A stretch of 32,000 bases of DNA. Origin: an archaeon GW2011_AR10 (lineage in GTDB: Archaea; Iainarchaeota; Iainarchaeia; Iainarchaeales; GW2011-AR10). Position numbers and translations under genes: made by a program. The stretch spans positions 630,001 to 662,000 of the forward strand of contig CP010424.1 of the NCBI GenBank assembly GCA_000830275.1. The letters are read 5' to 3'. The notes below the pieces were generated by a model that was not told the DNA's origin, made no database searches, and saw nothing but the letters and a program-made list of their open reading frames with translations. Shown piece by piece: positions 1,591 through 24,951 of this stretch; the stretch's first letter is position 1; each line of letters starts with the position of its first letter.

Positions 1591-1602
1591 GAGTGAAAGG
1601 AA

Positions 1603-10623: not shown

Positions 10624-11166
10624 TTAAATTTCCGGCCAATAGTAAATGAATGCCAGAGTGCCGCTGATTATCCATTGAGCGAAAAAGAGCACGAATATGG
10701 AGGCAAGCAGTGTTACAATGAAAACCGTTAAGTAGAGCTTCAGTGCCCAGTGGAACTTGAACGACTTCTTGATTTTTTCGTGCAAGAACAGGCCTATGAA
10801 CTCAAGCGGCAAAACAATGAAGGAAAGCACTAATGCAACAACAAGCAGCCTTACAAGCTGAATTAGCGCAATTAAGAGCAGCTCCAGAACAGGAGTCTGG
10901 AATTCAACTGGAGTTTCACCAAATGGATCGCTTTGAAGCAAGGGCAAAGCAGGCTGAAGATACAAAACTAATATTAATGAGAATATTAGTAAATATGTGG
11001 TTATGAATCCTGACTTGAACCAACTCCACTTGTACTTTCCGGCAATGGCCCTGCGCACTTTTGAAGCAAAAAAAACGAAAATGAAAACAGGAACGGAGCT
11101 TATGAAGGAGCCTTTCAGCAAATCAATCAGGGAAAAAACGGTAACCGAAACAAGGTCCTGCACCAT
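10624..11166 (-). CDS. Hypothetical polytopic membrane protein (180 aa)
   Basis: ORF with 4-5 hydrophobic helices and no recognisable motif. Confidence 0.65.
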   Translation of the reverse strand: MVQDLVSVTVFSLIDLLKGSFISSVPVFIFVFFASKVRRAIAGKYKWSWFKSGFITTYLLIFSLILVLYLQPALPLLQSDPFGETPVEFQTPVLELLLIALIQLVRLLVVALVLSFIVLPLEFIGLFLHEKIKKSFKFHWALKLYLTVFIVTLLASIFVLFFAQWIISGTLAFIYYWPEI

Positions 11167-11188
11167 GGAAAAAATATCGATAAACTAG

Positions 11189-11196
11189 TATAAAAA
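11189..11196. promoter_or_regulatory. AT-rich TATA-like element (TATAAAAA / TTTTTATA) shared by divergent genes
   Basis: It lies 26 nt upstream of ATG 11215 on the + strand and 30 nt upstream of ATG 11166 on the - strand. Confidence 0.35.
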
Positions 11197-11199
11197 GCT

Positions 11200-12462
11200 A
11201 TGGAAGATGTCTTGATGGGGTTTATTGATTTGCTGCTTGATGGCTTCATTGCATTTTATCTTGTTCTTGGCTCAACTAGCCTTGGCTACATGTTCTTGCG
11301 TTTGGGGTGGCCGAGGATAAGGATTCTTGACAAGCAGTACCGCGCGGGGTGGAGCTTGATTCTTGGAGTGATTTTTACTTCCATTATTGTGGTGAGCTCG
11401 CTTATTTTCAGCATTACTCCTTTCCTTTCATTCAATTTCAAGGAGTTTTTGTTCCTTAACCTGAGCGTTACTTTTTTCATTGCAGTTGTAGTTCTTACAA
11501 TTAAGAGAAAAATCCTTGTGCCGCGAAAGGCAACTGTGACTGTGCCAAGCGAACTGCTTAGAGCAAAAGTTGCGGCTGCAAAGGCAATGACGCATATTGA
11601 GTTAAGCGAAAGCCTTAAGGAAGGCGTAATCAGCGTTAAGCCATTGGAAGAGCAAAAGATTGCCGCGCTGAGAAAAAAACTTGAGGAAGGAAAAGAACTG
11701 GGTGCCATGAAAGCATCTGTTCAGGTTGAGTCAAGGCTTCCTCCGCTTGAAAAAATGTCAGAACAAAAGCATGAACAAAAAGAGGAAAAAATAGAAAGAG
11801 GGGAAGCAACGCACCCACTGGTGGCAAAACTTTTCGGAAAAAAACAGCTGGAAAAAACAGAAGAGAAGCTAATGGCCGAAACTGGAAGGGCAAAGCCTTC
11901 CATTGAAGAGAAAATAGGGCAGGCAAAACAGAGGGAAGGAGAAGCAAAAGAGAAAAGGCTTGCTGAACTCCAAAACCTGCTAGAGCAGCAGAGAGATAAA
12001 GCAAGGGAAGAGGAGGGAAAGCCATCCAAGCCTTCTTGGAGTTTCACCAGCAGACCGAAGCAGGGCGGGTTTGAAGCAAGGAAAACAGAAGCAGGAAAGA
12101 AAGCATTAGGAGAACAGTTGAAAAAAACAGAAGCACTAAAGAAACCCGCAGCACAGAAACCGTTAAAGGAAACAATACAGTTCACTCCCCTGCCTCCAGA
12201 GGAAAGAAAGATAGAGGCTGTGAGAGCTCCTCCAAAACTGCAGCAAGAGCAGGTGCCTTCTGTGCCAAAAACTGCAATACCTGAAAAGCAGGGAAAAAAA
12301 GTTGAAGGGAAGCTGAGAGAACTGGACAAAACCGGGAAAAAACAAATTCAGCAGCGGCCTGAAGACAGCGGAGAAGATGTTCTGGACAGGTTCCTGAGAG
12401 AAAAAGGGGCCCAACTAAGAGTGCTAAAAAAGAAAAAAACAAAAGGCGAAGAAAGTGGGTGA
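11200..12462 (+). CDS. Membrane-anchored K/E-rich low-complexity (coiled-coil-like) protein
   Basis: The N-terminal ~100 aa contain 3 hydrophobic helices. A ~300-aa Lys/Glu-rich region follows. The alternative start ATG 11215 (MGFIDLL..) fits the TATA spacing better. Confidence 0.7.
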   Translation: MEDVLMGFIDLLLDGFIAFYLVLGSTSLGYMFLRLGWPRIRILDKQYRAGWSLILGVIFTSIIVVSSLIFSITPFLSFNFKEFLFLNLSVTFFIAVVVLTIKRKILVPRKATVTVPSELLRAKVAAAKAMTHIELSESLKEGVISVKPLEEQKIAALRKKLEEGKELGAMKASVQVESRLPPLEKMSEQKHEQKEEKIERGEATHPLVAKLFGKKQLEKTEEKLMAETGRAKPSIEEKIGQAKQREGEAKEKRLAELQNLLEQQRDKAREEEGKPSKPSWSFTSRPKQGGFEARKTEAGKKALGEQLKKTEALKKPAAQKPLKETIQFTPLPPEERKIEAVRAPPKLQQEQVPSVPKTAIPEKQGKKVEGKLRELDKTGKKQIQQRPEDSGEDVLDRFLREKGAQLRVLKKKKTKGEESG

Positions 12463-13363
12463 GGGAAACCTGCCGAGAAGGCTTCGGCATAGAAAGCAGG
12501 CAGCTGATGCCAAGGCAGTTGAGAAGAAGTCCAGCGGCTTCTGGGATAATCTTTTTGGGAAAAAAAAAGCAGAAGAAAAAAAAAGCGAAGCAGTAGAACC
12601 AGAGCCTGACAGGCTGAGAAAAAAGCTGAAAGAAGAGAGCGATTACTTGGCTTCAGCAGAGGTCGGCAAATTCAAAGAAAAACATAACAGGATTCCTACA
12701 AGAAAAGAACTGGATGAAATTTCTGAAACAATTTACAGCCAGCTTAAGAAAGAGACAAGAAAAGAAAGGGAACGCGAGGAAAAGCCAAGCAGGAGAAGGG
12801 AAAAGCACGGGAAAGAAAGAACACTGCTGGAGAAACGAAGGGCTGAGAGGAAAAGGCACAGGAGAAGAGAAGAAGTTGGCCGCCGAGAAAAGCTGGAAGA
12901 AGACGAAACAGAAGAAGAAAATGAGGAAGAAGCACTCCAGCTTGGAAGAGCTGAACCAGAAATCGGGAAAGGGGAAGAACCACTTATTTCAGAGGAAGAG
13001 GAAAAAGAAATAAGCGTGAAGGACTTGCTGAAAGAAGAAGCAGGCGGAAAAGAAGAGGAAAGAGAAGAAACTACTGATGAAGATTATGACAAGCTTTCAC
13101 TTGAAGAGCTGACGGAAACGGAAGAGTTTGGCAAAATAGGCAGCGAGCTTGAACGCAGCGGAACTGAATCAATCACAAAAGAGATTGAAACAGAGAAGAA
13201 GTGCCCTCACTGCGGCACAAAATCATCCGATATTGTTTTCTGCTCTGGCTGCGGAGCAGGATTCTGTTCCCACTGCGCGAAAAAGGTTGAAGTGCAGGAA
13301 GAGCACATAAAGTATGTCTGCCCTTCATGCGGCAGCGAGTTCAGGGTAAAAAGGCACAAGTGA
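12455..13363 (+). CDS. K/E/R-rich protein with a C-terminal four-CxxC zinc-ribbon module
   Basis: GTG start overlapping the upstream stop by 8 nt. C-terminus: CPHCGTKSSDIVFCSGCGAGFCSHCAKKVEVQEEHIKYVCPSCGSEF. Confidence 0.7.
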   Translation: MGEGNLPRRLRHRKQAADAKAVEKKSSGFWDNLFGKKKAEEKKSEAVEPEPDRLRKKLKEESDYLASAEVGKFKEKHNRIPTRKELDEISETIYSQLKKETRKEREREEKPSRRREKHGKERTLLEKRRAERKRHRRREEVGRREKLEEDETEEENEEEALQLGRAEPEIGKGEEPLISEEEEKEISVKDLLKEEAGGKEEEREETTDEDYDKLSLEELTETEEFGKIGSELERSGTESITKEIETEKKCPHCGTKSSDIVFCSGCGAGFCSHCAKKVEVQEEHIKYVCPSCGSEFRVKRHK

Positions 13364-13369
13364 AAAATT

Positions 13370-14155
13370 TTACCTGCACGCTGAAGAATCAAAGTGCTCA
13401 ATGCCTGCTTCAATGCAGCACCACTCAGAACTCTTAAAGTAGGGAACAGAACCTACTTCTGTCGCATCCCACAAAACCAAATCTGCCTGCGTTTCAAATG
13501 GCCTGAAAGTTATCTCGTCCTCTGCAACCATTGTTATTTTGGCTGAAGCCTGCGCTGTGTCGCCAACCCGGATAATAAGGTCTTTCAGGCTGTTGTTGAT
13601 TGTGCCAAAGTCAGCATTTTCCCCAATGCTGCACAGCAAATCAGTTCTTGGAGGGTCATCAGCAACAAAGTTTGGAAACCTCCCTGTTCCAATGTTCTCA
13701 AAGTTTGTTTTGTGGAAAAAAATGAAGATGAATTTCTGCCTCACATCCTCTTGGTCTCTTGGAACAGAAAGATAGAAAATGTAATCAAAGTTGTCTCCAA
13801 GAGGAGCCATTATTGAATTGATGTCCTGCGCTAAAATCAGCATTGTTTTCTCTGTGAGGTAGCGCTTGTCGGCATAATCTTCCTTCACATAAGCAAGCAG
13901 CTGGTCAATTTCAACTTCACTACTTAAGCCGTAAATTGAGCTGTCTGGGTTTCTTGGAGTGCTGCTGTAAAGAATTGTTTTAAGGGCATCCGTTGCAAAA
14001 TCAGAATTGTAGTTCTGCACTATCTGCGCTGAAACAGTGTTGCCGTATCCATTGGAGAAAGAGAAAAGGAAAACGCTGATTGAGGTAACTATCAGGAGAA
14101 AGTAAAGAGCATCTGTTACTGCTGCTTGGCCTCTGTTTTCCTTTAAGGCATCCAT
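13370..14155 (-). CDS. Pilin-like protein with an archaeal class III signal peptide (last gene of the pilus operon)
   Basis: N-terminus MDALKENRG/QAAVTDALYFLLIVTSISVFLF, that is [K/R]-G-Q followed by a hydrophobic helix. Overlaps the upstream gene by 13 nt. Confidence 0.75.
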   Translation of the reverse strand: MDALKENRGQAAVTDALYFLLIVTSISVFLFSFSNGYGNTVSAQIVQNYNSDFATDALKTILYSSTPRNPDSSIYGLSSEVEIDQLLAYVKEDYADKRYLTEKTMLILAQDINSIMAPLGDNFDYIFYLSVPRDQEDVRQKFIFIFFHKTNFENIGTGRFPNFVADDPPRTDLLCSIGENADFGTINNSLKDLIIRVGDTAQASAKITMVAEDEITFRPFETQADLVLWDATEVGSVPYFKSSEWCCIEAGIEHFDSSACR

Positions 14156-14682
14156 GTAACCACCACCAAGTGCATTGGCTTAATAACCCTGTTGTCTTCA
14201 ACTGCAATCGGGTAAATCCTTGCAACAATTTCTTTGTCGGCAAAAAAACGGTAAGCAAAGCTAGGGGAAGAAGAAATGTCGCTGTTAATTGCAGGGTCAA
14301 TGTTGTGGCATGAGAACTCGTTGCCTGCTTCATCCAAGAAAAAGCCCACGTTGTATAGCCTTGCATCCTGGGCATTGTATTGCAGGCTGTATTGGTCTGT
14401 GGCAGTATAATAGTTTGTTATTCCCGCGCGGAATTTAAGGTTTGGAATGCTGAGTGTACTGCACAGCGCTTTGAAGTTCTCGTAGCCACTTATATAGCTT
14501 GTGCCTTTAAGGACTTTGGCAATTTTTATCACTTTGATGTCAGAATCGAACTTGGAGTTTTTATTGTCAAAGACACCGAAAGCGAAAGTAAAGGTTGAAA
14601 AAAACATTATCAGCGCGAAGAGCAGTGGAATCAGGGAAGGCAGGTCATCTCCAATCGGCCCCAAAAAACCTTTATTCAGCAA
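14143..14682 (-). CDS. Pilus-operon accessory protein with an N-terminal hydrophobic anchor (weak pilin-like signal)
   Basis: TTG start overlapping the upstream stop (TTGCTGA). N-terminus LNKG/FLGPIGDDLPSLIPLLFALIMFFSTFTFAF. Confidence 0.65.
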   Translation of the reverse strand: MLNKGFLGPIGDDLPSLIPLLFALIMFFSTFTFAFGVFDNKNSKFDSDIKVIKIAKVLKGTSYISGYENFKALCSTLSIPNLKFRAGITNYYTATDQYSLQYNAQDARLYNVGFFLDEAGNEFSCHNIDPAINSDISSSPSFAYRFFADKEIVARIYPIAVEDNRVIKPMHLVVVTWMP

Positions 14683-15344
14683 GTGAAACCAACCCCTGGG
14701 TAAACGCTTTCACCCACGCTTGATTTTATGGCATTGCATGTCGGGCCAACGCTGCATGGAAAAATGTAGAGGGAGCTTTGCCCCCTCTTGATTTCCTTAA
14801 CTAACTGAATTGAATCCATTGGAACTCTGGCCTGAGGGTCAATGTAAACAGATTCCCCTGTGTCAGTGGCCAGTTCGCGGAGTGTTCCAATTCCCCCGTA
14901 CTCGTCACCCAAATAGTCTTGGCTGAAAAGGGTTACTTCTGCTTTTGTTTCAAAGGATTTTGCTGCAATTGCTTTTGGAATGTAGGAAGGGTCATTAATT
15001 GATTTCACGAGGTCGCGCCTCGGGAAAACCGAGAAAATAACTTTCGAGATTGTTTCAGGGCCTGAGGGAAGCTCTTTCTCAAACTGCGTTACACTTATTT
15101 TCATCACATAGTAGAATTCTTGGCCGCTTACATCAAGGGAGCGCGGGAATGTATGTGAATCAGAAAAACAGTAAGCGGGGGAAGAAGCAACACTGCTTGC
15201 TTTGGTGAGAACCCTGTCAAGCAACAGCTGTGCTTCCTTCACCTTGACTATGTCGATTAAGCCGAAAGTGAAGAAGGCAACGATTGCAAAAATTGATACC
15301 ACAAGTATCAAGAGATTCATTTTGCTTAAAATGAAGCCAAGCAT
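14676..15344 (-). CDS. Pilus-operon accessory protein with an N-terminal TM anchor
   Basis: ATG 15344 (MLGFILSKMNLLILVVSIFAIVAFF) is preceded by GAGGG with a 6-nt spacer, and it lies 2 nt after the upstream TGA. The ORF track extends the ORF to TTG 15368. Confidence 0.65.
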   Translation of the reverse strand: MLGFILSKMNLLILVVSIFAIVAFFTFGLIDIVKVKEAQLLLDRVLTKASSVASSPAYCFSDSHTFPRSLDVSGQEFYYVMKISVTQFEKELPSGPETISKVIFSVFPRRDLVKSINDPSYIPKAIAAKSFETKAEVTLFSQDYLGDEYGGIGTLRELATDTGESVYIDPQARVPMDSIQLVKEIKRGQSSLYIFPCSVGPTCNAIKSSVGESVYPGVGFTC

Positions 15345-15346
15345 TG

Positions 15347-15892
15347 TCAAACCCTCTTGTAAACGCAAATCCTTGGCTGCGGGGAGAACAAGTGGAACTG
15401 CTTGATTAAAGTGTACTGGCCGGGCTCAATTGCTTCGTCTTTCTTCCATTCCTTTACTTTAAATTCTGTTGGCTGGTCGTCAAAGTCGTGGCAGACTGTT
15501 GCGGAAGGAAAATCCGTTGCAGAAGAAATGTTAAGACACTTTATTGAACTGAAGTCAGGCGAGGAAAACAAAAGCAGAGTGCATTCATAGCGCAACCCGC
15601 CACAATGAAAAGAGCAAGTGGCCCGGTCATCCCTGCTGACAATCCTCAGCGAGCTATCATTCTGGTTAAAGCAGGACGGCATATCGTATGCAACAGTTTT
15701 TTTGCCTTCGCCTTTTGCAACTGTTTCAAGCGCAGTCTTCAATTCCTCCATGTTCTGGTCAATTTTGCCTTCACACTGCGCTCTCAGCAAAGTGCTCATT
15801 GCATTGAGCCCTACAACTATCACAAAAGTCATTGTTATTACTGCAATCAGCAGCTCGAAAGGGGCTGCTTCCTGGCCTTTCTGGCTGAGCAT
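15347..15892 (-). CDS. Pilin-like protein with an archaeal class III signal peptide
   Basis: From ATG 15892: MLSQKG/QEAAPFELLIAVITMTFVIVVGL. A TATA-like element TTTATATA (complement of 15917-15924) lies about 28 nt upstream. The ORF-track start at 15943 adds a spurious-looking extension. The mature part is Cys-rich. Confidence 0.75.
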   Translation of the reverse strand: MLSQKGQEAAPFELLIAVITMTFVIVVGLNAMSTLLRAQCEGKIDQNMEELKTALETVAKGEGKKTVAYDMPSCFNQNDSSLRIVSRDDRATCSFHCGGLRYECTLLLFSSPDFSSIKCLNISSATDFPSATVCHDFDDQPTEFKVKEWKKDEAIEPGQYTLIKQFHLFSPQPRICVYKRV

Positions 15893-16001
15893 GGTAACAA
15901 GAATACTGTAAAGAGATATATAAAGATTCTCAGAATCAATCAACAGGTATTGAGGGCAAGCATTATGAGCTGTTTGTGTTACTGTAAAAAAACGCAGTGT
16001 T

Positions 16002-16169
16002 TTACTTATTGAAATACTTGGCCTGCTGCCTGCTCCAAACCTTATTCGGAGTTTTTTTCAGCCATTCAGCGTACATGTCGATAAATTCCATGCGCTGCTG
16101 CCTGTTTCTCCTCATTTCCTCTTTAAGCTCTTTCAAATCTTTTTTTGTAAGCTTTAGCCCTTTTCCCAT
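16002..16169 (-). CDS. Small basic protein (55 aa), not in the ORF track
   Basis: Manual translation: MGKGLKLTKKDLKELKEEMRRNRQQRMEFIDMYAEWLKKTPNKVWSRQQAKYFNK*. It fills the gap in the minus-strand operon. The overlapping + strand ORFs 15605..16012 and 15997..16200 have implausible composition. Confidence 0.5.
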   Translation of the reverse strand: MGKGLKLTKKDLKELKEEMRRNRQQRMEFIDMYAEWLKKTPNKVWSRQQAKYFNK

Positions 16170-16328
16170 AAAATTTTCTCCGCCTGCTTTTCAACCCTGA
16201 AATTTTGAAAGCTCTCTTTCAAAAACAATCCTGTTTCCCTTGAATTCCAGTTCCATAAATTAATCTGCCAACAAACTTAATTTAACCATTCTCAAGCAAA
16301 AAAAGTATCCAAGTATTTGAAGTAGTAG

Positions 16329-16487
16329 TCAGTTTATGAGCGGCTGCCTTTTAACTATTTCCTGGCTCTTCTTGAACATTGGCTTAATCAAAGCAATCAG
16401 CAAAAGCGCTGCAATAATAAAAATAATGATTAGGTAAATTGAGCTCCATTCACCCTGCGCCCTTTCACCTAATTCAGGAAATCCCAT
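16329..16487 (-). CDS. Small (52 aa) pilin-like / Flp-like protein, not in the ORF track
   Basis: Manual translation: MGFPELGERA/QGEWSSIYLIIIFIIAALLLIALIKPMFKKSQEIVKRQPLIN*. It has the same [K/R]-[G/A]-Q plus hydrophobic-helix pattern as the neighbouring pilin-like genes. Confidence 0.5.
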   Translation of the reverse strand: MGFPELGERAQGEWSSIYLIIIFIIAALLLIALIKPMFKKSQEIVKRQPLIN

Positions 16488-16533
16488 ATAGAAAAAGAAT
16501 GGAAAAAGAAGTATTTAATGATTGGTGTTAGGT

Positions 16534-17082
16534 TTAACTTGCCGGAATAATGCTTACAAGGCAAATCCTTTCAGTGTTTGAGGGGTCAAATATTGCTGTT
16601 CCACCGCCACAAAAGCTGTTGTAGCCGGAAAACACTGTGTCAAGCCTTGCTTCTAGGACGGTTTCCTCAACCCTGTTCGCGTTATCGCAGAGCACGTATA
16701 GCTTCTGCTGCTGGTCAGAGTTGCCGTTGTAGCGAATCCAAGAGCCTTGAGCAACTTCCTCATAGTTAGGGTTGCTTCCTGAAACAGTGTCAGAAATTAA
16801 AACGCAAAGCTGGTGCTCTCCAAGCGAACCAGTTTTTTCTGCAATTGTCCTTGACCTCAGGCTTGTGCCGTTCTTGAATGTTACTAATCCTGTTCTTTCA
16901 GGCGTGCCCAAATTGTTGATGAGTGTCTTAATTTTTGAGGACGCTTCCTCTGTGGGGTCGCCTTGGCTTGGGGGCGCAATCTGCGTTAAAATCTGCAGCA
17001 GAATTGTGAGAATGAATACTGCAACAATTGCTGCAATCAACAGCTTGAAAACGCTGAAAGCCTGCCCTCTCTCATTCAACAT
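16534..17082 (-). CDS. Pilin-like protein with an archaeal class III signal peptide
   Basis: N-terminus MLNERG/QAFSVFKLLIAAIVAVFILTILLQIL. TATA-like TTTAAATA (complement of 17112-17119) is centred about 33 nt upstream of the ATG. It is a paralog of 17148..17612 (shared ..KGT..A.[KR]TG..Q.CV.I.. block). Confidence 0.8.
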   Translation of the reverse strand: MLNERGQAFSVFKLLIAAIVAVFILTILLQILTQIAPPSQGDPTEEASSKIKTLINNLGTPERTGLVTFKNGTSLRSRTIAEKTGSLGEHQLCVLISDTVSGSNPNYEEVAQGSWIRYNGNSDQQQKLYVLCDNANRVEETVLEARLDTVFSGYNSFCGGGTAIFDPSNTERICLVSIIPAS

Positions 17083-17147
17083 AGCAATCGTAAATAGAAA
17101 CTCTTAACCCATATTTAAAGGTTTTGCTTTAATTCGGCTATAAACAG

Positions 17148-17612
17148 CTAAGGCGTAATTGGTTTAGAGAAAGAGAACTTGCAGCAGATTTCGCAGGTTG
17201 AATCGCAAAAGGAGGCAGGGTCAAGGTTTGTTGTGCACTGCGCGTAAAAGTTTGTTTCAATGCGGTAATTTACCAGTATTCTTTGCGAGTCAACAGTGAA
17301 AGAGGAACTGCTTGGAGCAAGAATTTCAACGCATTGCCCCTCTAATCCTGTTCTTCTTGCAAGAAAATCTTTAGTATAAACTGTGCCTTTGTCGAAGAGG
17401 AGGTTTTCAACAACAAGAATGTCATTGTTTGGCTGCTGCACCGCGTTCTCTAATCCTTCAAGAAAACGCTCTTTGCTCACGTTTATTTTGAACTCCTCAA
17501 AGGAACGGATTGCACCGAGAATTATTAATAAAATCAGCAGCGCAACTATTGCGCCAATCATCATCTTGAACGGCTCAAACTGCCCTTTCTCCATACTAAA
17601 AACATCTCCCAA
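17148..17612 (-). CDS. Pilin-like protein with an archaeal class III signal peptide
   Basis: N-terminus ..MEKG/QFEPFKMMIGAIVALLILLIILGAI. The start is either TTG 17612 or ATG 17594. The C-terminus is Cys-rich. Confidence 0.8.
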   Translation of the reverse strand: MGDVFSMEKGQFEPFKMMIGAIVALLILLIILGAIRSFEEFKINVSKERFLEGLENAVQQPNNDILVVENLLFDKGTVYTKDFLARRTGLEGQCVEILAPSSSSFTVDSQRILVNYRIETNFYAQCTTNLDPASFCDSTCEICCKFSFSKPITP

Positions 17613-17633
17613 TTTTTTTTAGTGTAAAAAACA

Positions 17634-19991
17634 TTAAGCCAAAAATCCGCCGACGAGAATGTTGGAAATAATTATGCTTAAAACGAAAATTATAACTGAA
17701 ATTGGGAAAAAGCGCGCAATGTTTATTCTCACCAGCAAATCGTTGTCCTCCTCTATTTTGGTGGTGAAGTAAGTCATTATGAGGAGAAGCTCCACAACGT
17801 AGATTGCAACGATGATTACGAACTGCGTTGGAGTAGCCATTCCAGCAACTGCTGCCGGGTCAATGAAGCTTCCAACGTTTATGCCAGAAAACGTGTTTGG
17901 AATGCCTGCTCCTCCTGGAACATCAAGGTTGCTCAGATCAAGTTCCGTTGCAATATTGGAAGAAGCGATGGAGGAAAGGGTTATTATTACGATTTTCTGC
18001 AGGCTTGTTGTAATGCCCAAAACCATCGGCGCAATGAATAGGCTCATTGTCTTCATCATTCCTGTTACATCAGAAACCAAAATCTTCAAATTGTTTGCAA
18101 CCTTTTCCGCGTTGTCGAGCTGGATGCTTAACGCAATCATTGTCCTGGCAGCAACGTTCACCCCCAATTGCACTGAATCAACAAGCAGCCTCACTGAACC
18201 GCTAATCAACGAGCTTGGAATGTTTTTCAATGAACCATAGTTTGGGTCAAAGAATGCCTGCTCTAATGGCATTGCAAGCAAGGCAATGTTGTCAAGCGTT
18301 TTCGAGAAAATCCTTTTCGATATTTTGAACTGTGGCAAAAAATCCATTGTGTGCTTTAATGCTTCCTCCACCGGCTTGTTTTCACCCATGCGGGAAGCAA
18401 GAATGTAGATTGAGTCCTTGAACTCTGACTCCATTTCAACAATTTCAAGCTGGGCTTTCCGCTTGTAAATGTTGTTGTAGTAGAGGTAAACAAACACTGA
18501 AAGTGAAACGGTTATGAGCAGGCCGAAAATGAAATTGTAGGGAGTAATATCGTTGGCCGGCTTCGTGAAAAATGCCTGTTCCTCGCTTTTCACGCGTTTC
18601 TCTGCTTCCTCAACAGGAAAACCCTGCGCAATCAGCTCATTGTAAAGCACTCCTGTGGGAATGTCAAAGTATTTCAATTGGTAGCCTGCTTTTGAAAGAA
18701 CTTCAGTCCTTTGCTTGTCTAATGCAAGCAGCTGCGGCGTGCCTTCCTCAAGGCCCAAAGCATCGTAAAGAATTTTTGGCGGAACTCCTTGCTGTGAAAC
18801 AAAAAAGGAAATTGAGCTTCCTGCAATCAACACAACAACAACCACGAAGAAAATGCTCACAAAGCCGTTGCCTAACCTCATTGTGCCCTTCGGCGGCAAA
18901 CCCGGAAAGTTGTCCTTTATTTCAGGCGCAACATACGTTGGTGGGCGCTTGCTTATAACGGAGAAAGCAAACCAAAGCGTAACCAAAGGAATTATTATGT
19001 TGTAAATGGCAAACAAAACAATTGGGTTTGCAAGCGGTGCGCCGCTGAAAGAGCTCCCTACAGGAAGAATGATTATCAGAATCAATGGAAGCAGCACCCC
19101 AACATAGAAGAGAATCATTGTTGGCTGGTTGAGGTCGCGAGCATACTGCTCCATTTTGTTTTTTATTGACTCAAGTATTTCATCCATTGTTTGGTCAAGC
19201 AAAGCAAAACGCTTTGCTTCAGTTGTTTCAATCACTGAAGCGCGGATTCGCATCAACGCTTTCTTGAATTCATCGCTGAATGCACCCCAGCGGTAAGCCA
19301 GTGCATCGCTTGCTTCTGCAACAGACGAGTAAACTCCCAACTGGACATCCCACAAAAGTTTTTTGAAGTCTTCAGCAATTTTGCCCCTGCCGTGCTCTGC
19401 TGCAAACTCAATGCTTTTCTCCAGGTTCGGGCTTAACTTCATTGACATAACCATGTAGCCGAGGATTTCAGGAACATAAGTCAAAGCACGCACCTGCTCT
19501 GCTCTTGCCTCCTCCAAGGGATAGTTTTGAACATAATATGTTGCAAAAACCACCATGCCAAGCAATGGGAGGAGAATGTAGATTGGCGTAAGAAAGGTTG
19601 CCCCGCCAACGAATAGGTTTACAACCACTATTGCAGGGGACAGGAAAATAATTCCTGCAATTACTATTGCAGCAAGAAAGCTCACAATCAGCACGAACTT
19701 GTACGCTGCACCAAGCTCTTCCCCATTTAGCTCCCAACCCAGAAACTCCACTGCCTTCTTGTTCTGCTCTGAAAGCGCTTCACCTTTTCCTAGTGAAGGA
19801 GCCATTGCGTGAATGCGCTTGCAGAACCTAACAAAAGGGTGCTGTTTTCTCCTTACAAGCGTTCTTTCCTCATTCTTGAACTCGTCCTTGACCACGGCTA
19901 TTTCCCTGTAAAGCTCTCCAATAGAGCTTGGCCCATCAAACAGCTTCTCTTCTTCTTCCTGCTCTCTTTCTTCCCTGTCTTTTCTCGCCAT
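17634..19991 (-). CDS. FlaJ/TadC/PilC-like polytopic platform protein (785 aa, two T2SSF-like domains)
   Basis: Many TM helices. Two soluble T2SSF-like segments are present: ..LTYVPEILGYMVMSMKLSPNLEKSIEFAAEHGRGKIAEDFKKLLWDV.. and ..FKDSIYILASRMGENKPVEEALKHTMDFLP... It sits directly downstream of the ATPase. Confidence 0.85.
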   Translation of the reverse strand: MARKDREEREQEEEEKLFDGPSSIGELYREIAVVKDEFKNEERTLVRRKQHPFVRFCKRIHAMAPSLGKGEALSEQNKKAVEFLGWELNGEELGAAYKFVLIVSFLAAIVIAGIIFLSPAIVVVNLFVGGATFLTPIYILLPLLGMVVFATYYVQNYPLEEARAEQVRALTYVPEILGYMVMSMKLSPNLEKSIEFAAEHGRGKIAEDFKKLLWDVQLGVYSSVAEASDALAYRWGAFSDEFKKALMRIRASVIETTEAKRFALLDQTMDEILESIKNKMEQYARDLNQPTMILFYVGVLLPLILIIILPVGSSFSGAPLANPIVLFAIYNIIIPLVTLWFAFSVISKRPPTYVAPEIKDNFPGLPPKGTMRLGNGFVSIFFVVVVVLIAGSSISFFVSQQGVPPKILYDALGLEEGTPQLLALDKQRTEVLSKAGYQLKYFDIPTGVLYNELIAQGFPVEEAEKRVKSEEQAFFTKPANDITPYNFIFGLLITVSLSVFVYLYYNNIYKRKAQLEIVEMESEFKDSIYILASRMGENKPVEEALKHTMDFLPQFKISKRIFSKTLDNIALLAMPLEQAFFDPNYGSLKNIPSSLISGSVRLLVDSVQLGVNVAARTMIALSIQLDNAEKVANNLKILVSDVTGMMKTMSLFIAPMVLGITTSLQKIVIITLSSIASSNIATELDLSNLDVPGGAGIPNTFSGINVGSFIDPAAVAGMATPTQFVIIVAIYVVELLLIMTYFTTKIEEDNDLLVRINIARFFPISVIIFVLSIIISNILVGGFLA

Positions 19992-20005
19992 AAAATGGTT
20001 TCACT

Positions 20006-22285
20006 TCAAGACTTTGTTTTGGCAATTATTCCCTTAATTAAGTGGTTTTTTACCCAGTTCTTCCACTCGCCCAGAACCTCTTCGTAGTCAACGGAACCGT
20101 GTTCTTCAAGCTGGTCCTCCTTCAATAGCATGAGCTTGTTGTTTGCAAGAACCGCGTTTTCTGCTTCAAGCAGAGAAGGAATTGAATTCTTGTTCTTCAT
20201 TTCCACCAAAAACTCTTTTGCCGAGCCATTCATTCTTATGCTCCTCCAGATTTCTTCAAGGTTGAGGCCGCTCATCTTGCTTATCTTTGAGAACATCTCG
20301 CTTTCCTTAAGGTTGTCTTCAAGCAGTTCAAGCTCGTCTTTTTTTGCGTCATAACTCATTAGGTCCAGCAAACCGCCCTCTCTTTCAGGATCCTCAATCC
20401 AGTGCTTTTTCACCTCTGTTATCTGGACAATTCTCCTGTTCCTCTGCAGTGACCCGGAAAACCTTATCGGCCTTGCAACCACGACAACATCAGTTGCCTT
20501 AAACGAAGTGTTTGGAACATCCAAGTCATTCACTACCCTATCCCACACAGAGTAAGCGCTTTCACCGTGGATTGTTCCCATCACAATGTTTCCCGCAGCA
20601 CCAATTCTCATTGCCTCGTACAGAACCCTTGCTTCCTTGCTCCTCACTTCACCTATGATTAGGGCAGAATCTCCCAAACGAAGCGCTGTCCTCAAAGCTT
20701 CCTCTGGCGCAACCTCAGAGGAAGTGCCGCCAGCAGCAATAGGTGAACGCGTTTTAAGCCTCTGGATGTTGAAGCCTATGTTCTTCATGTAAGGAACTGG
20801 AAGTTCCAAGGTGTCTTCCTGCACAATTATTCTCGTGCTCTGGATAATTTCAAGGATTAGTGCCTGCATCAAAGAAGTTTTTCCGCTGCCCCTTGAACCA
20901 GTAACCAGCATTGTTGCCTGTGCGTCAACGAAAAAAGAAAGCAGGCCTGCTGAAAGAGGAGTTAAAAATTTCACGTCAACAAACTGGGGCAGCGTCCAAG
21001 GAGTAACCTTATGCAGCCTGAAAGCAAACGCGATTCCGCTCGGCGCAAGCGGCGGGCCAATGACTGCAACCCTTGTCTCCATGTCAGGCAAATCAAAGTC
21101 CAGGACTGGATGAGCTTCATCAAATGGCCTGCCTGACATTGCACGCATTTTTGATACAAGCGAACTTGCCTCTCCTTCAGTGTAAAGAATGTTGGTTTCG
21201 CACTGGCCAAAGTCAGAGTGAATAACGTAAAGCGGCTTCTGCCCGATGGGAGAATCAATGAAAATGTCTGTGAGGTTCCTGTCAGAGAGCAGCAGTTCAA
21301 GGATTCCGTAGCCGACAGTGTACCTTGCAACAATCTGGCTTAACTCAATTATTTCATCGTTGCCAAGAGAAATATTGTTCTCTTTCGCGATGTCCTTGAT
21401 TGTTGACTGGTAAACGCGCTCAAAGTACTTCCTGCTTTTCGCAAGCTCGCTTAAAGAGGTTTTTCCAGGCCTGTACGATGCAACGATTTCCCTTGTCTTG
21501 CTCAAAATGAAGTACTTGTCCGGGGGCAGGGAATACTCTGGGGGATTGACAATGTAAAGCTTCTGCGGCTTGTTCGGGTGCTTGAATATCTGCACTGTTG
21601 TATCCTTCACTTGGTATTCGTCCAGAAGCTCCAGCTTTTCCTCTTCTTCAAACAGCAGCCTTGAACCGATAAAGGAGGGTTTTACCTGCGCTTCAAAGAA
21701 CGGCTTGTACATTTCTTTTGTGTCAGGAACTGTTTTCAGCTTCAAAAGAATCTGTTTGGCTTTCTGGACAAGCATTGTGCTGTCAAGGTTCTTCTTTATG
21801 TAAAGCAGGGTGCGAAGGTAAACATCAGAGTAATGCTCTTTGTCCTCAGAGCTAAAGCGCTCCCTTTCCTTGCTGATGGCGCGGAGCAGTTCAAGGTAAG
21901 AATAAATCGGGTCAAACAACAGGGTATCGTGAGTGATTTTAACAATAGTGTTGTGCCTTTCACCGAAGTCTTTTTCGCCCTCAATTTTTGCATCCCCTAA
22001 AAACTTGTAGCTCCACACGCTTTCAATCTCTAATTTTTGCGCAACCCTCGAAATTTCCTCCAGAAGCTTTTTCTGCTCCTCGCTGTAAACCCTTTCGTAC
22101 ACTTCAGCCAAAACAATGTCGTCAACTTCCACTTCTTGAAGCAGGCTGAAGACATGGTACCTGCATGCAGGGTCATCAGCGATTGAGGAACTATAAACGC
22201 AGTCGCGACAGTCAAAAATCAGGTGCCTCTTGTTGCCTTCCTCTTTAACCGCCCAAGGGCCTACTTCAAAACCGCCGATTTTCAA
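20006..22285 (-). CDS. Type IV pilus/archaellum-family assembly ATPase (FlaI/PilB-like, 759 aa) with a long N-terminal extension
   Basis: Walker A GSRGSGKTS, Asp box RIIVQEDTLE, Walker B ALIIGEVRSKE, His box GTIHGES. TTG start preceded by AGGTGA with a 6-nt spacer. N-terminal Cys cluster FDCRDCVYSSSIADDPACRYH. Confidence 0.9.
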   Translation of the reverse strand: MKIGGFEVGPWAVKEEGNKRHLIFDCRDCVYSSSIADDPACRYHVFSLLQEVEVDDIVLAEVYERVYSEEQKKLLEEISRVAQKLEIESVWSYKFLGDAKIEGEKDFGERHNTIVKITHDTLLFDPIYSYLELLRAISKERERFSSEDKEHYSDVYLRTLLYIKKNLDSTMLVQKAKQILLKLKTVPDTKEMYKPFFEAQVKPSFIGSRLLFEEEEKLELLDEYQVKDTTVQIFKHPNKPQKLYIVNPPEYSLPPDKYFILSKTREIVASYRPGKTSLSELAKSRKYFERVYQSTIKDIAKENNISLGNDEIIELSQIVARYTVGYGILELLLSDRNLTDIFIDSPIGQKPLYVIHSDFGQCETNILYTEGEASSLVSKMRAMSGRPFDEAHPVLDFDLPDMETRVAVIGPPLAPSGIAFAFRLHKVTPWTLPQFVDVKFLTPLSAGLLSFFVDAQATMLVTGSRGSGKTSLMQALILEIIQSTRIIVQEDTLELPVPYMKNIGFNIQRLKTRSPIAAGGTSSEVAPEEALRTALRLGDSALIIGEVRSKEARVLYEAMRIGAAGNIVMGTIHGESAYSVWDRVVNDLDVPNTSFKATDVVVVARPIRFSGSLQRNRRIVQITEVKKHWIEDPEREGGLLDLMSYDAKKDELELLEDNLKESEMFSKISKMSGLNLEEIWRSIRMNGSAKEFLVEMKNKNSIPSLLEAENAVLANNKLMLLKEDQLEEHGSVDYEEVLGEWKNWVKNHLIKGIIAKTKS

Positions 22286-23809: not shown

Positions 23810-24367
23810 ATGCACAAAAAATTTGAATTTCTGAGTAAAACTTTTTCAGAGAAAGAAATACTTAAAGCAGGAAAGTTTCTTTTGGGCTTAGCTGCATACT
23901 TCATTGCGCTGAGCTTTCTTGTTTCACTGGTGCCGCTGGAATTGGTTGAATTCTTTTTTGCATCAGTTTCACTTTTCTTTCTTGGGTTTTTTGGCTTTTC
24001 GGGAGAACTGGTTTTCACGGAACCAGTTATCATGCAATTGCAGGGCTTGGAGCAAGGAATTGCAATAACCTATCTTTGCACTGGCCTGCTGGAACTGGTG
24101 CTGCTTGTTTCAGCTGTTGCCTCCTCGTTCGGCATTGAATGGAAAAAAAGAATTATTGGAGTTATTGCTGGCGCAATTGCATTGGTTGCGTTCAACGTTT
24201 TCAGGATAGTTTCAAGCATTCTGATTATTCTTTGGTTTGGTTTGGAGGCAGGTGGCTTTTCGCATGACCTGTTGTTCAGGGTTTTTTTGTTTGCAACCGT
24301 TGCCGGCTACTATTTTGTGTGGTTTAACTGGGCCACAAGACTAAAAAAACTGAATTCCACCTTATAG
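23810..24367 (+). CDS. Minimal exosortase/archaeosortase-family protein (185 aa)
   Basis: A multi-TM protein carrying the family's three signature positions in the expected order and spacing: Cys90 in ITYLCTGLLEL (C-[ST]-G), Arg132 in AFNVFRIV (N-x-x-R), and His152 in GGFSHDLLF. Confidence 0.75.
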   Translation: MHKKFEFLSKTFSEKEILKAGKFLLGLAAYFIALSFLVSLVPLELVEFFFASVSLFFLGFFGFSGELVFTEPVIMQLQGLEQGIAITYLCTGLLELVLLVSAVASSFGIEWKKRIIGVIAGAIALVAFNVFRIVSSILIILWFGLEAGGFSHDLLFRVFLFATVAGYYFVWFNWATRLKKLNSTL

Positions 24368-24730
24368 CATTATAGTGTTTTCTCCTTCAAAGTGTTTGTC
24401 CCCAGTAACAATCGGCAGATTGTACTGCTTTGCTGTTGCAAGAATGATTGCATCAATTAAACCAAAATCCTTGAAGTTTTTTCTTTTTTCTATTTTTAAT
24501 ATACCTGATGTTTCCAATTGTTCTTGGTTGACTTCGATAATTGTAGACAGGTTTTTAACAATGTGAAAAATTTTTTGCCGGTTAAGTTTGCTTTTTTCAA
24601 CCCACTCGCTCAGCTCTGCAATAGAAATAGCACTTGTGAAACACTGGTTATTAGCAATAACTTCTTTTACTTTTAGGCCCCTGCTAGTACCATTAAATAA
24701 TTCAATCCAAGCATATGTATCCAAAAGCAC
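24362..24730 (-). CDS. vapC: PIN-domain toxin (VapC-like)
   Basis: GTG start abutting the antitoxin stop. N-terminal LLDTYAWIE (first acidic residue). ..GLIDAIILATAKQYNLPIVTGDKHF.. is typical of a PIN C-terminus. Confidence 0.8.
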   Translation of the reverse strand: MLLDTYAWIELFNGTSRGLKVKEVIANNQCFTSAISIAELSEWVEKSKLNRQKIFHIVKNLSTIIEVNQEQLETSGILKIEKRKNFKDFGLIDAIILATAKQYNLPIVTGDKHFEGENTIML

Positions 24731-24949
24731 TTAAAACACTCTGTCTTTGTGGTCTCGCCTAAAGGGTTTTGCATTTTTTACAGAACCAAATGCTTTTTCA
24801 AGTAAAGAGATGTCTTTTTTAATAACAGCCAACTGTATTTTCTCCCCCTCGCCGATTTTTTCCTGTTTTACTACCTCCTTTGGAATCAGAGCACCCCAAG
24901 AACTCCCAACCTTTCTAAGCTTGGTTTCAAAAACCTGCACAAAAATCAC
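24731..24949 (-). CDS. vapB: AbrB/SpoVT-type antitoxin (VapB-like)
   Basis: ..TKLRKVGSSWGALIPKEVVKQEKIGEGEKIQLAV.. is a swapped-hairpin AbrB-like motif. The gene sits immediately upstream of the PIN gene. Confidence 0.7.
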   Translation of the reverse strand: MIFVQVFETKLRKVGSSWGALIPKEVVKQEKIGEGEKIQLAVIKKDISLLEKAFGSVKNAKPFRRDHKDRVF

Positions 24950-24951
24950 TA

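Follow-up and report, generated by a model that had tools for sequence, protein, structure and literature searches.

The window analyzed here is a 32-kb stretch of DNA from a MAG of Candidatus Iainarchaeota (Diapherotrites, DPANN). On its minus strand, an assembly ATPase gene and a platform gene are accompanied by eight small ORFs, with short gaps or overlaps between them. As first called, the small ORFs occupied 17148-17612, 16534-17082, 16329-16487, 16002-16169, 15347-15943, 14676-15368, 14143-14682 and 13370-14155 (minus strand); comparison with homologues placed the true starts of P1, P4 and P5 at internal ATGs at 17594 (MEKGQ), 15892 (MLSQKGQ) and 15344 (MLGF), respectively. The features of the locus are as follows:

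20006..22285, minus strand: assembly ATPase, 759 aa, TTG start
17634..19991, minus strand: platform protein, 785 aa, divergent T2SSF, polytopic, TadC/FlaJ/PilC-like, single gene
17148..17594, minus strand: P1, prepilin-like, 148 aa from ATG 17594; leader MEKG, then QFEPFKMMIGAIVALLILLIIL
17112..17119, minus strand: TATA-like box TTTAAATA, 37 nt upstream of the P2 start codon
16534..17082, minus strand: P2, prepilin-like, 182 aa; leader MLNERG, then QAFSVFKLLIAAIVAVFIL
16511..16518, minus strand: TATA-like box TTAAATAC, 31 nt upstream of the P3 start codon
16329..16487, minus strand: P3, 52 aa; leader MGFPELGERA, QGEWSS, 20-aa hydrophobic stretch, basic tail KPMFKKSQEIVKRQ
16002..16169, minus strand: 55-aa basic ORF lacking a hydrophobic segment, outside the conserved core
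15917..15924, minus strand: TATA-like box TTTATATA, 32 nt upstream of the P4 ATG at 15892
15347..15892, minus strand: P4, prepilin-like, 181 aa from ATG 15892; leader MLSQKG, then QEAAPFELLIAVITMTFVIVVG
14676..15344, minus strand: P5, 222 aa from ATG 15344; N-terminal membrane anchor MLGFILSKMNLLILVV
14143..14682, minus strand: P6, 179 aa; starts MLNKG, then FLGPIGDDLPSLIPLLFALIMFF
13370..14155, minus strand: P7, prepilin-like, 261 aa; leader MDALKENRG, then QAAVTDALYFLLIVTSISVFLF

Gene order is shared with 14 other species-level genomes (ATPase-platform-P1-P2-P3-P4-P5-P6-P7), while several further genomes have rearranged or partial versions and two Micrarchaeota-like loci have a reduced gene set. 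Micrarchaeota homologues of the ATPase (50-53% identity) come with part of the same pilin set, and more distant ATPase homologues (L027, L045, L052 and L072) are solitary, lacking platform and pilin genes. The original prediction of a ten-gene operon was correct in that the ATPase, the platform and eight small ORFs are all present, but as judged by sequence comparison the conserved core is nine genes, because the 55-aa ORF is not conserved in relatives. A search of 82 loci for counterparts returned a single marginal match (L033, E=8e-4), the gap between P3 and P4 is <100 nt in most relatives, and no gene is called at the corresponding place in L001 and L003. This ORF is either a lineage-specific insert or spurious.

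The ATPase carries an N-terminal extension of ~290 aa before a FlaI/TadA-like core and matches PF00437 (T2SSE) with 61.4 bits (cut-off 24.9; E=7.6e-17). Its translation displays Walker A (GSRGSGKTS), Asp box (IIVQEDTLE), Walker B (ALIIGEVR) and His box (GTIHGES) motifs, and its nearest solved structures are the A. fulgidus GspE-like protein 2OAP (107.7 bits), CpaF (99) and FlaI (81.6). Homologues number >1000, the best 120 of which are 64-78% identical (one 100%) and are named Diapherotrites, Micrarchaeota or archaeon. The platform gene adjoins the ATPase in every colinear locus, and its product has ~8-9 hydrophobic segments, counted by eye from overlapping hydropathy windows. Its match to PF00482 (T2SSF; residues 179-310) reaches 24.6 bits, slightly below the cut-off of 25.2, and T2SSF is matched in 19 of 26 platform homologues. 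The T2SSE/T2SSF searches proposed with the original prediction are thus positive for the ATPase and, through its homologues, for the platform protein. The top NCBIfam model for the ATPase is FlaI, and some of its homologues bear the JGI annotation 'archaeal flagellar protein FlaI', as might be expected of a locus for an archaellum, the rotary swimming organelle. We consider this reading extremely improbable. The FlaI score is 138.6 bits, far below the cut-off of 550; the A. fulgidus GspE-like and CpaF structures score above FlaI; the 290-aa N-terminal extension is absent from minimal archaellum ATPases (10.64898/2026.04.22.720090); and FlaH/ArlH, ArlF/G, ArlCDE/X and archaellin domains are absent from the locus genes and their homologues.

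All five [K/R]-[G/A]-Q N-termini quoted in the original prediction are present verbatim and are the sole five such sites in six frames of the window, under a scan that requires [KR][GA]Q to lie <=30 codons from a start codon and the sequence behind it to have a mean Kyte-Doolittle hydropathy >=2.0 over 17 aa. The mean expected by chance is 0.005 (200 shuffles). Gln+1 is invariant in P1, P2, P3, P4 and P7 across related genomes, and together with the helix that follows it forms the most conserved part of each family. Glu+5 is absent from these proteins; at +6/+7, P1 and P2 have K/R, P4 has E and P7 has D. P1, P2 and P4 are related as paralogues, a pattern that major and minor pilins would be expected to show: hhalign gives 99.3% for P1 versus P2 over 125 residues, and 96% for P4 versus P1 and P2 across the N-terminal 63-77 residues.

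P1 lies directly behind the platform gene without a promoter of its own, and has the family consensus n..GQaf..frlLIGAI (36 sequences). In P2, residues G6, Q7, F9, F12, K13, L14, L15, I16, A17 and A18 are invariant; the AlphaFold2 model (pLDDT 84.8) comprises a helix at residues 5-34 (30 residues) and then an alpha/beta head, and the family has 625 cluster representatives at E<=1e-3. P4 has a Cys-rich head and the consensus kGQEsAPFELLiavivM.FVi (23 sequences). P7, the largest subunit of the set, is a candidate minor or tip pilin; Q10, A11 and D15 are invariant among 84 sequences, and its 99 homologues are all named 'hypothetical'. Its model (pLDDT 90.4, pTM 0.83) shows a 57-residue N-terminal helix (6-62) followed by a sheet-containing alpha/beta domain. 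The structure predictions suggested originally thus gave a long N-terminal helix plus head for P2 and P7, but the heads match no solved structure, pilin or otherwise: Foldseek searches with the two models had best E values of 0.095 and 0.046, respectively.

The remaining small proteins are less regular. P3 is nearly all helix, with the consensus eerAQsEWss.Ylliv..IAAlllIa.iKPMF (26 sequences) and a T-run behind its gene at 16297-16304. It could be a pilin the size of Flp or EpdE, or else a small membrane protein acting in assembly; by the positive-inside rule, its basic C-terminal tail would favor a membrane orientation opposite to that of a pilin. P5 has no canonical class III motif, no match in Pfam or the PDB, and no counterpart in either Micrarchaeota-like locus; M1, S7, K8, N10, L11, L12 and I13 are invariant and residue 3 is variable (G/A/D/S). 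It is probably an accessory protein. P6, whose gene overlaps that of P5 by 7 nt, has two Asp ahead of its hydrophobic stretch and also lacks the canonical motif, although its KG-F junction is possibly a sixth cleavage motif. Residues F6, G8, G11, D12, D13 and P15 are invariant in 20 P6 sequences, including the Micrarchaeota-like L057 and L059, and the protein may be either atypical pilin-like or a bitopic accessory component.

Judged by sequence, the seven small pilin-like proteins lie outside every described family. A DUF361-type relationship, raised with the original prediction, was not borne out, as the small proteins and 136 homologues gave no match to Pfam/NCBIfam pilin, archaellin or DUF361 models. 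No Peptidase_A24 match was found among window ORFs >=150 aa, and the predicted absence of a prepilin peptidase from the window extends to 10 kb on each flank (52 kb in total) and to 82 related loci. Together with the poor fit of P5 and P6 to the motif, these results could be taken to mean that the small ORFs encode ordinary signal-anchored membrane or secreted proteins, whose G/A-Q is a Sec-type or other conserved feature. Such an explanation is very unlikely. The motif lies 4-10 residues from the start with the hydrophobic helix directly after it, which is the class III arrangement, whereas Sec signals are cut behind the hydrophobic core. Five such proteins fall in one operon with T2SSE and T2SSF genes, far above the chance expectation, the gene order is strictly kept across the phylum, and the predicted N-terminal helix of P7 extends over 57 residues. 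A peptidase encoded away from the pilus locus is ordinary for archaea (PMC4858521; PMC5498576), and the invariant Gln+1 is shared with proven EppA substrates, of which it is the hallmark, as the original prediction held (PMC3875500). Since Glu+5 is absent, these proteins need not depend on EppA. The original identification as an archaeal type IV pilus-like locus with several Gln+1 prepilin-like proteins, which proves to be conserved in the phylum, is supported by the ATPase and platform domain matches, the kept gene order, the invariant G/A-Q motifs in ~20 related genomes and the helix-plus-head AlphaFold2 models.

Internal TATA-like boxes had been predicted at about 17115 and 15920; both were found, with a third before P3. 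An octamer of the P2 kind is found between -46 and -25 in 21/30 related loci (background 1.9%), and GGTGAT immediately precedes the P2 ATG in many loci. Before P3, a box is present at -41 to -29 in 17/22 loci, consistent with a leaderless or near-leaderless transcript. The P4 box, probably the promoter of a P4-P5-P6-P7 unit, occurs at -41 to -29 in 12/22 loci, and P4 abuts P3 in the loci without it. TATA-like boxes before P1, P5, P6 and P7 were found in 0-1 loci each (P1 1/32, P6 0/18). The restriction of conserved boxes to P2, P3 and P4 strengthens the idea of sub-operonic pilin transcription. Given its own TATA box and Shine-Dalgarno sequence and its frequent duplication (5 loci), P2 is the likeliest candidate for the major subunit.

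By gene features rather than phylogeny, the locus resembles euryarchaeal 'clade 2'/'System 2' pili (e.g. the Haloferax volcanii PilB/PilC loci). Unlike in clade 2, P1-P7 match no PilA/Pilin_N-type family in Pfam, and we know of no description of Gln+1 in clade 2 pilins. System 2 loci are described as having long N-terminal ATPases, one platform gene, several pilins (some without the class III motif) and large adhesins nearby (10.64898/2026.04.22.720090). The present locus likewise combines one large platform gene with an ATPase that is long at its N-terminus; several pilin-like genes, of which some lack the motif, lie downstream, large adhesin-like proteins are nearby and the peptidase would be encoded elsewhere (PMC4858521; PMC5498576; 10.64898/2026.04.22.720090). 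A Micrarchaeota genome is reported to encode two pilus systems, one a nine-gene 'euryarchaeal-group' locus, with its only FlaK-like peptidase at another site (PMC5498576); as described, the nine genes MIA14_0252-0260 of Micrarchaeota archaeon Mia14 form a similar locus. Epd pili of Methanococcus maripaludis ('clade 1'/'System 1') also have class III leaders ending in Gly and a conserved Gln+1. Their leaders are 5-13 residues long, and their pilins, many of them minor, range from very small (major MMP1685, 74 aa) to larger (PMC3875500), a mix of sizes that our locus shares, probably together with the abundance of minor pilins. In contrast, Epd has two platform genes and the 9-TM peptidase EppA within the locus, where ours has one platform gene and no peptidase, and Epd pilins have DUF361 and Glu+5, where ours have no DUF361 match and an acidic or basic residue at +6/+7. 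A separate clade-1-like module (ATPase and two T2SSF genes) lies in the same genome, at window positions 30-2517.

Three neighboring genes are also conserved in related loci:

23810..24367, plus strand: exosortase/archaeosortase-family protein, 185 aa, divergent from the ATPase
12455..13363, plus strand: K/E-rich protein with a C-terminal double zinc ribbon, 302 aa, convergent on P7
5613..10442, minus strand: giant secreted protein, 1609 aa; C-terminus LNLPSLP, TM helix, basic tail

The archaeosortase-like protein matches NCBIfam TIGR04178 (39.7 bits; cut-off 23) and Pfam PF09721 (22.5 bits), and in 31 related loci a homologue is the neighbor of the ATPase gene, often with 34-113 nt between the two, suggesting a link to the pilus. 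The K/E-rich protein has Zn-ribbon Pfam matches and homologues in 16 related loci. The giant protein has no Pfam domains; its homologues in L018, L035, L049 and L081 have the (F/L)NLPSLP C-terminal motif in common, which no other ORF carries. Of the genomic linkage originally noted to a murein hydrolase and a giant protein, the latter recurs in 10 related loci but the hydrolase, a peptidoglycan amidase/glucosaminidase 3.4 kb from the locus, in just 2.

These neighbors bear on whether the machine instead builds a pseudopilus, a short piston- or periscope-like fiber as in bacterial type II secretion or Gram-positive competence (ComG), serving either to secrete enzymes or large surface proteins or to import host DNA or other host macromolecules. 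The layouts gspE-F-G-H-I-J-K-L-M and comGA-GG resemble the present locus, which is a likeness and not a test. Bacterial Tad/Flp and type II secretion/ComG systems have the same ATPase-platform-pilins order, several minor pilin-like proteins and bitopic accessory proteins, as here with two bitopic proteins; CpaF (Tad) ranks high among the solved structures related to the ATPase, and P3 is like a Flp pilin in size and layout (~41 mature residues, helix, short tail). Seven distinct conserved small proteins exceed the needs of a simple adhesion pilus, and a secreted giant protein carrying a sorting signal, an archaeosortase-like gene and the nearby hydrolase would suit such a function, as would the reliance of DPANN archaea on hosts for building blocks (PMC5498576). 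However, the resemblance is one of organization, without detectable homology: a secretin, the Flp motif and detectable TadE/F, Gsp or ComG homology, including to Gsp or Com minor pilins, are all absent. No ComEC/ComEA-like or Ced-like DNA channel was found among the scanned window genes and the flank genes with Pfam matches, the hydrolase is rarely linked, and archaea lack an outer membrane that would have to be traversed. The strong promoters dedicated to P2 and P3 are what one would expect for subunits that a filament needs in large numbers. A pseudopilus is therefore an unlikely reading, albeit the most credible of the alternatives.

We favor, with a probability of about 0.75, the reading that the locus equips a tiny DPANN archaeon with machinery for assembling a type IV filament (pilus), most probably for attachment. 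[quoted passage not shown] The hexameric ATPase would dock onto the polytopic platform protein and, using ATP, lift processed subunits from the membrane so that their helices stack as a helical filament. We infer this cleavage and polymerization, as well as a layout of one major and several minor subunits: P2 would be the likeliest bulk subunit. P3, which has a promoter to itself, would be either another filament subunit, of Flp size, or a factor for assembly at the membrane; P1, P4 and P7 would act as priming or tip pilins in low copy number, and P5 and P6 as accessory parts anchored in the membrane. The filament would most probably attach to a surface or host cell, an adhesion or contact role that fits the lack of archaellum genes in view and the neighboring giant surface protein. 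The type of system is already known in outline, and comparable DPANN pilus loci with unrecognizable pilins have been described (PMC6393860). The freshest lead is the archaeosortase-like gene together with the giant protein and its NLPSLP C-terminal signal, the latter being a candidate for both the substrate of the archaeosortase-like protein and an adhesin.

The minus-strand genes make up a true type IV filament locus of the Iainarchaeota (Archaea). The original prediction of a type IV pilus-like operon is borne out by the ATPase, the platform and the class III-like N-termini of small proteins encoded downstream, although the conserved unit comprises nine genes rather than ten. The ORF list places the ATPase and platform ahead of eight small ORFs, which are separated by short gaps or overlaps and extend downstream to 13370. 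True starts of P1 (ATG 17594), P4 (ATG 15892) and P5 (ATG 15344) were set by homologues.

Genes of the pilus locus, in order of transcription
20006-22285, minus strand, ATPase, 759 aa
17634-19991, minus strand, platform, 785 aa
17148-17594, minus strand, small protein P1
16534-17082, minus strand, small protein P2
16329-16487, minus strand, small protein P3
16002-16169, minus strand, 55-aa ORF
15347-15892, minus strand, small protein P4
14676-15344, minus strand, small protein P5
14143-14682, minus strand, small protein P6
13370-14155, minus strand, small protein P7

The ATPase matches Pfam T2SSE (PF00437) at 61.4 bits against a cut-off of 24.9, and Walker A, Asp box, Walker B and His box motifs are all visible in its translation, as expected of a T2SSE/VirB11-family secretion ATPase of the type IV filament superfamily. 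Its nearest solved relatives in a PDB search are the GspE-like protein of Archaeoglobus fulgidus (2OAP, 107.7 bits), CpaF (99 bits) and FlaI (81.6 bits). The conserved core begins near residue 290, leaving a long N-terminal extension. Within this extension, residues 25-44 (window 22180-22270) hold a Cys cluster, FDCRDCVYSSSIADDPACRYH, which is kept in distant homologues such as that of related locus L045, and partly in L027, and may bind a metal. About one tenth of the closest ATPase homologues (P0017, P0025, P0084, P0087 and others) contain intein and LAGLIDADG domains (PF14890, PF14528) and reach ~1270 aa; the copy in the window has no intein. The platform scores 24.6 bits against T2SSF, marginally below the cut-off of 25.2, and 19 of 26 platform homologues match this model (best E 7e-6), consistent with a polytopic T2SSF platform. 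Its hydrophobic segments number about eight to nine. The duplication expected of T2SSF was not detected when the N-terminal half was compared with the C-terminal half using hhalign, and a search of PDB sequences with the platform profile returned nothing. Archaella are recognized by a FlaI/ArlI equivalog ATPase, ArlH, ArlF/G, ArlCDE or ArlX, and archaellins. FlaI and TadA are the top NCBIfam models for the ATPase, but the FlaI match reaches 138.6 bits against a cut-off of 550 and no gene of the locus encodes an archaellum accessory or archaellin domain; an archaellum was thus rejected.

The five [KR][GA]Q N-termini quoted in the original prediction occur verbatim in the window. They are the only such sites in six frames of the 32 kb when [KR][GA]Q is followed by a strongly hydrophobic 17-residue stretch near a start codon; five were observed against a mean of 0.005 in 200 shuffles. 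The five proteins fit the class III-type motif (short charged leader, G or A at -1, ~20 hydrophobic residues), with leaders of 4-10 residues in the class III arrangement and an invariant or almost invariant Gln at +1, the first residue after the predicted cut. This motif is kept in 20-36 homologues of each, and alignments identify the N-terminus as the best-conserved portion of every small family. P5 begins directly with MLGFILSK.NLLILV, and because its residue 3 is variable it has no canonical class III motif. P6 has an invariant KGF.GPIGDDLPSLIPL, which could be cleaved between G and F, but two Asp stand ahead of the hydrophobic stretch.

N-terminal consensus of the five Gln+1 proteins
P1: n..GQaf..frlLIGAI
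P2: mn.kGQafsvFkLLIAAvvA
P3: eerAQsEWss, then 20 hydrophobic residues, then KPMF
P4: kGQEsAPFELLiavivM
P7: kGQAa.TDalyFLlIv

Profile-profile comparison identified P1 and P2 as paralogues (99.3%) and linked P4 to both across the N-terminal 63-77 residues (96%); no mutual relationship was found among P3, P5, P6 and P7. Position +7 past the predicted cut is K/R in P1 and P2 and E in P4, while P7 has Asp at +6; being complementary, these charged residues could form pairs within the core of a filament. No pilin or archaellin model of Pfam or NCBIfam was matched by any of the small proteins or by 136 homologues. The P2 family has 625 representatives at E<=1e-3 in a library at 50% identity; all relatives that the P2 profile listed there were close and full-length, and P2 was linked to no named pilin family.

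Pilins share a general lollipop layout, in which a globular head packs against the C-terminal half of an extended N-terminal helix. AlphaFold2 models P7 (84 sequences; pLDDT 90.4, pTM 0.83) as a 57-residue N-terminal helix (6-62) followed by an alpha/beta domain with a sheet, and P2 (18 sequences; pLDDT 84.8) as a helix (5-34) followed by a mixed head. The modeled shapes are compatible with pilins. The structural check proposed originally thus gave secondary structure that fits a helix-plus-head layout, but Foldseek against the PDB found no significant match, to a pilin or otherwise, for either model. Profiles of P2, P7, P5 and P6 retrieved nothing from PDB sequences.

The Gln at +1 had been read as typical of EppA-dependent pilins. 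In Methanococcus maripaludis, EppA substrates indeed have Gln+1 and short leaders ending in Gly, together with DUF361 and Glu+5, in a system with two platform genes (PMC3875500; PMC4858521). Gln+1 is thus common to the Epd/System 1 pili (PMC3875500) and our locus, whereas Glu+5 and DUF361 are absent here: DUF361 (PF04021) gave no match at E<=1 among the window proteins, nor at E<=0.01 among 136 homologues. Of the HMM searches proposed originally, those for T2SSE and, marginally, T2SSF were positive and that for DUF361 was not. Epd/System 1 further has two platform genes and a 9-TM EppA at or near the locus, in contrast to the single 785-aa platform and lack of a peptidase here. A second filament module lies at 30-2517 (plus strand) of the window (8677-11731 in L083) and consists of an ATPase truncated at the window edge (445 aa) and two separate T2SSF genes, one of them at 787-1590. 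This module is clade 1/System 1-like. Its ATPase is 25% identical to that of the pilus locus, and no pilin genes were found downstream of it. Upstream of the module in L083 is a 639-aa surface protein that starts with ...KKG followed by IILAMVAVIV and ends in a TM anchor.

The pilus locus instead fits the published description of euryarchaeal clade 2/System 2 (PMC4858521; 10.64898/2026.04.22.720090), likened by organization only: a long N-terminal region of the ATPase, a single platform, mixed pilins and a large surface protein nearby. Markers of that system are an ATPase branching in clade 2, the minor pilin arCOG02911 and a PilA-family major pilin; no Pfam Pilin_N-type match was found among the 136 homologues of our small proteins. 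The organization also agrees with that of the nine-gene 'euryarchaeal-group' locus of Micrarchaeota archaeon Mia14, compared by description only (PMC5498576). Such loci are already known in outline, and DPANN pilus loci have been noted to encode signal-peptide proteins that do not detectably resemble any known pilin (Makarova et al. 2019, PMC6393860).

The window was mapped to contig DUFG01000011.1 of assembly GCA_013332025.1. More than 1000 ATPase homologues were found. The best 120 share 64-78% identity (one is identical), and the named ones among them belong to Candidatus Diapherotrites, Micrarchaeota or 'archaeon'. A scan for the ATPase in a single genome of each GTDB species yielded 78 loci, the majority from Candidatus Iainarchaeum (56-76% identity, Ca. 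Iainarchaeum andersonii included), followed by Micrarchaeota (~50-53%) and Woesearchaeota (37-39%). Iainarchaeota-type ATPases also occur on contigs in MAGs labeled Chloroflexota, Thaumarchaeota or Spirochaetia (L012, L015, L050, L069, L079); these labels probably reflect binning errors in public assemblies. ORFs of 82 fetched loci were sorted into families by iterated profile searches. The series platform-P1-P2-P3-P4-P5-P6-P7 is complete and colinear in 14 species-level loci, and in several more this order is rearranged or cut by contig ends. Two Micrarchaeota-like loci carry a reduced set (platform, two copies of P2, P3, P4, P6 and P7). Distant ATPase homologues in Woesearchaeota and some Micrarchaeota are stand-alone genes, and no further pilin sets were found beside them. 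The 55-aa ORF was rejected as a tenth component: it has a single marginal match among the 82 loci and the P3-P4 gap is <100 nt in most relatives, so the conserved unit is of nine genes. This ORF is basic, has GGAG upstream and sits in the P3-P4 spacer, and a faintly similar ORF precedes P3 in L033 (17647-17826); it may be noise or a small gene, regulatory or mobile, of sporadic occurrence.

Two internal TATA-like boxes had been proposed and were found at 17112-17119 and 15917-15924, with a third at 16511-16518 upstream of P3. TATA-like octamers were counted 29-46 nt upstream of start codons (a few nearer, to -25), where the background is 1.9% per search interval. They precede P2 in 21/30 loci, P3 in 17/22 and P4 in 12/22; the corresponding counts are 1/32 for P1, 0/19 for P5, 0/18 for P6 and 1/20 for P7. 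GGTGAT stands ahead of the P2 ATG in many loci, and T-runs lie downstream of P3 and of the 55-aa ORF. The likely transcription units are [ATPase-platform-P1], [P2], [P3] and [P4-P5-P6-P7], and the dedicated promoters of P2 and P3 suggest that these two are the abundant products. No earlier description of the promoter architecture of this pilus locus was found in the literature.

As originally noted, no prepilin peptidase gene is present in the window, where no ORF matches Peptidase_A24. The annotation of the 10 kb to each side shows none, and a crude scan of the window and 82 related loci for polytopic ORFs with G.[GAH]D[VIALFMT][KRL] found no A24-like peptidase. This absence is normal, since archaeal prepilin peptidases are usually unlinked to pilus loci (PMC4858521) and the single FlaK-like gene of Mia14 is likewise distant from its two pilus loci (PMC5498576).

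An archaeosortase-like gene at 23810-24367 (plus strand) scores 39.7 bits with the NCBIfam exosortase/archaeosortase model TIGR04178 (cut-off 23). In 31 related loci it is the neighbor of the pilus ATPase, and the distance is often no more than ~100 nt. The exosortase/archaeosortase family acts on C-terminal signals. For this reason, and because a matching signal is found on the giant protein (1609 aa, 5613-10442, minus strand), the archaeosortase-like protein was set aside as a substitute for the missing prepilin peptidase. The giant protein has homologues in 10 related loci. It shares with them a C-terminus in which (F/L)NLPSLP is followed by a TM helix and a basic tail; the motif occurs in no other ORF. 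A polytopic signature protein and a substrate with C-terminal motif, TM helix and basic tail are the pattern of a dedicated sortase-substrate pair. No known CTERM model matched this C-terminus and no earlier description of an archaeosortase/NLPSLP pair was found in the literature; the pair may be new. Linkage of the locus to a murein hydrolase and to the giant protein had also been proposed. It stands for the latter, but only 2 related loci have a hydrolase homologue nearby, and the hydrolase was rejected as a conserved partner. This secreted 1016-aa protein has Amidase_3 (N-acetylmuramoyl-L-alanine amidase, 117.6 bits), PKD and weak glucosaminidase domains and would attack bacterial peptidoglycan. 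A probable toxin-antitoxin pair, annotated with Pfam from the identical contig L086, occupies the space that separates the hydrolase operon from the archaeosortase-like gene.

Other neighbors of the pilus locus
within 10624-13363, 420-aa protein (TM helices at the N-terminus, long tail rich in K/E), homologues in 9 loci
within 10624-13363, 180-aa protein, homologues in 14 loci
12455-13363, K/E-rich protein with a C-terminal double zinc ribbon, homologues in 16 loci
24362-24730, minus strand, PIN-domain (VapC-like) gene
~24731-24950, minus strand, small upstream partner of the PIN-domain gene
25707-28757, plus strand, 1016-aa secreted hydrolase

A more far-reaching reading, which we consider rather unlikely, is that of a DPANN-specific filament subtype (Iainarchaeota; reduced in Micrarchaeota) with seven dedicated families of unseen head folds. 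It would be coupled in function to a new archaeosortase system by which a giant 'NLPSLP-CTERM' adhesin is anchored, the two forming a host-contact organelle of ultrasmall archaea. Under such a scheme, the Gln+1 pilins might be cut by a peptidase that is EppA-like or unrecognized, and P3, of Flp size, might be the real filament subunit. For a type IV filament locus of the kind already outlined, ATPase and platform homology, together with the conservation of class III-like N-termini, suggests that subunits would be inserted into the membrane, cleaved by an unlinked peptidase and polymerized on the platform in an ATP-driven manner, with P2 or P3 as candidate major subunit and adhesion as a putative function.

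The conserved internal promoters make the abundant subunits a testable prediction, and the archaeosortase-like gene with its apparent single substrate is a separate lead on the anchoring of giant surface proteins. The seven small families are missing from Pfam and NCBIfam, and naming and modeling them would clear a recurrent block of 'hypothetical proteins' in DPANN annotations. To our knowledge, every DPANN archaeon cultivated to date lives attached to host cells, by a mechanism that is poorly understood. The locus is conserved across Iainarchaeota and no pilus study of this lineage was found in the literature; its nine genes are therefore a defined set of targets when enrichment cultures are studied by metatranscriptomics, metaproteomics or cryo-tomography.
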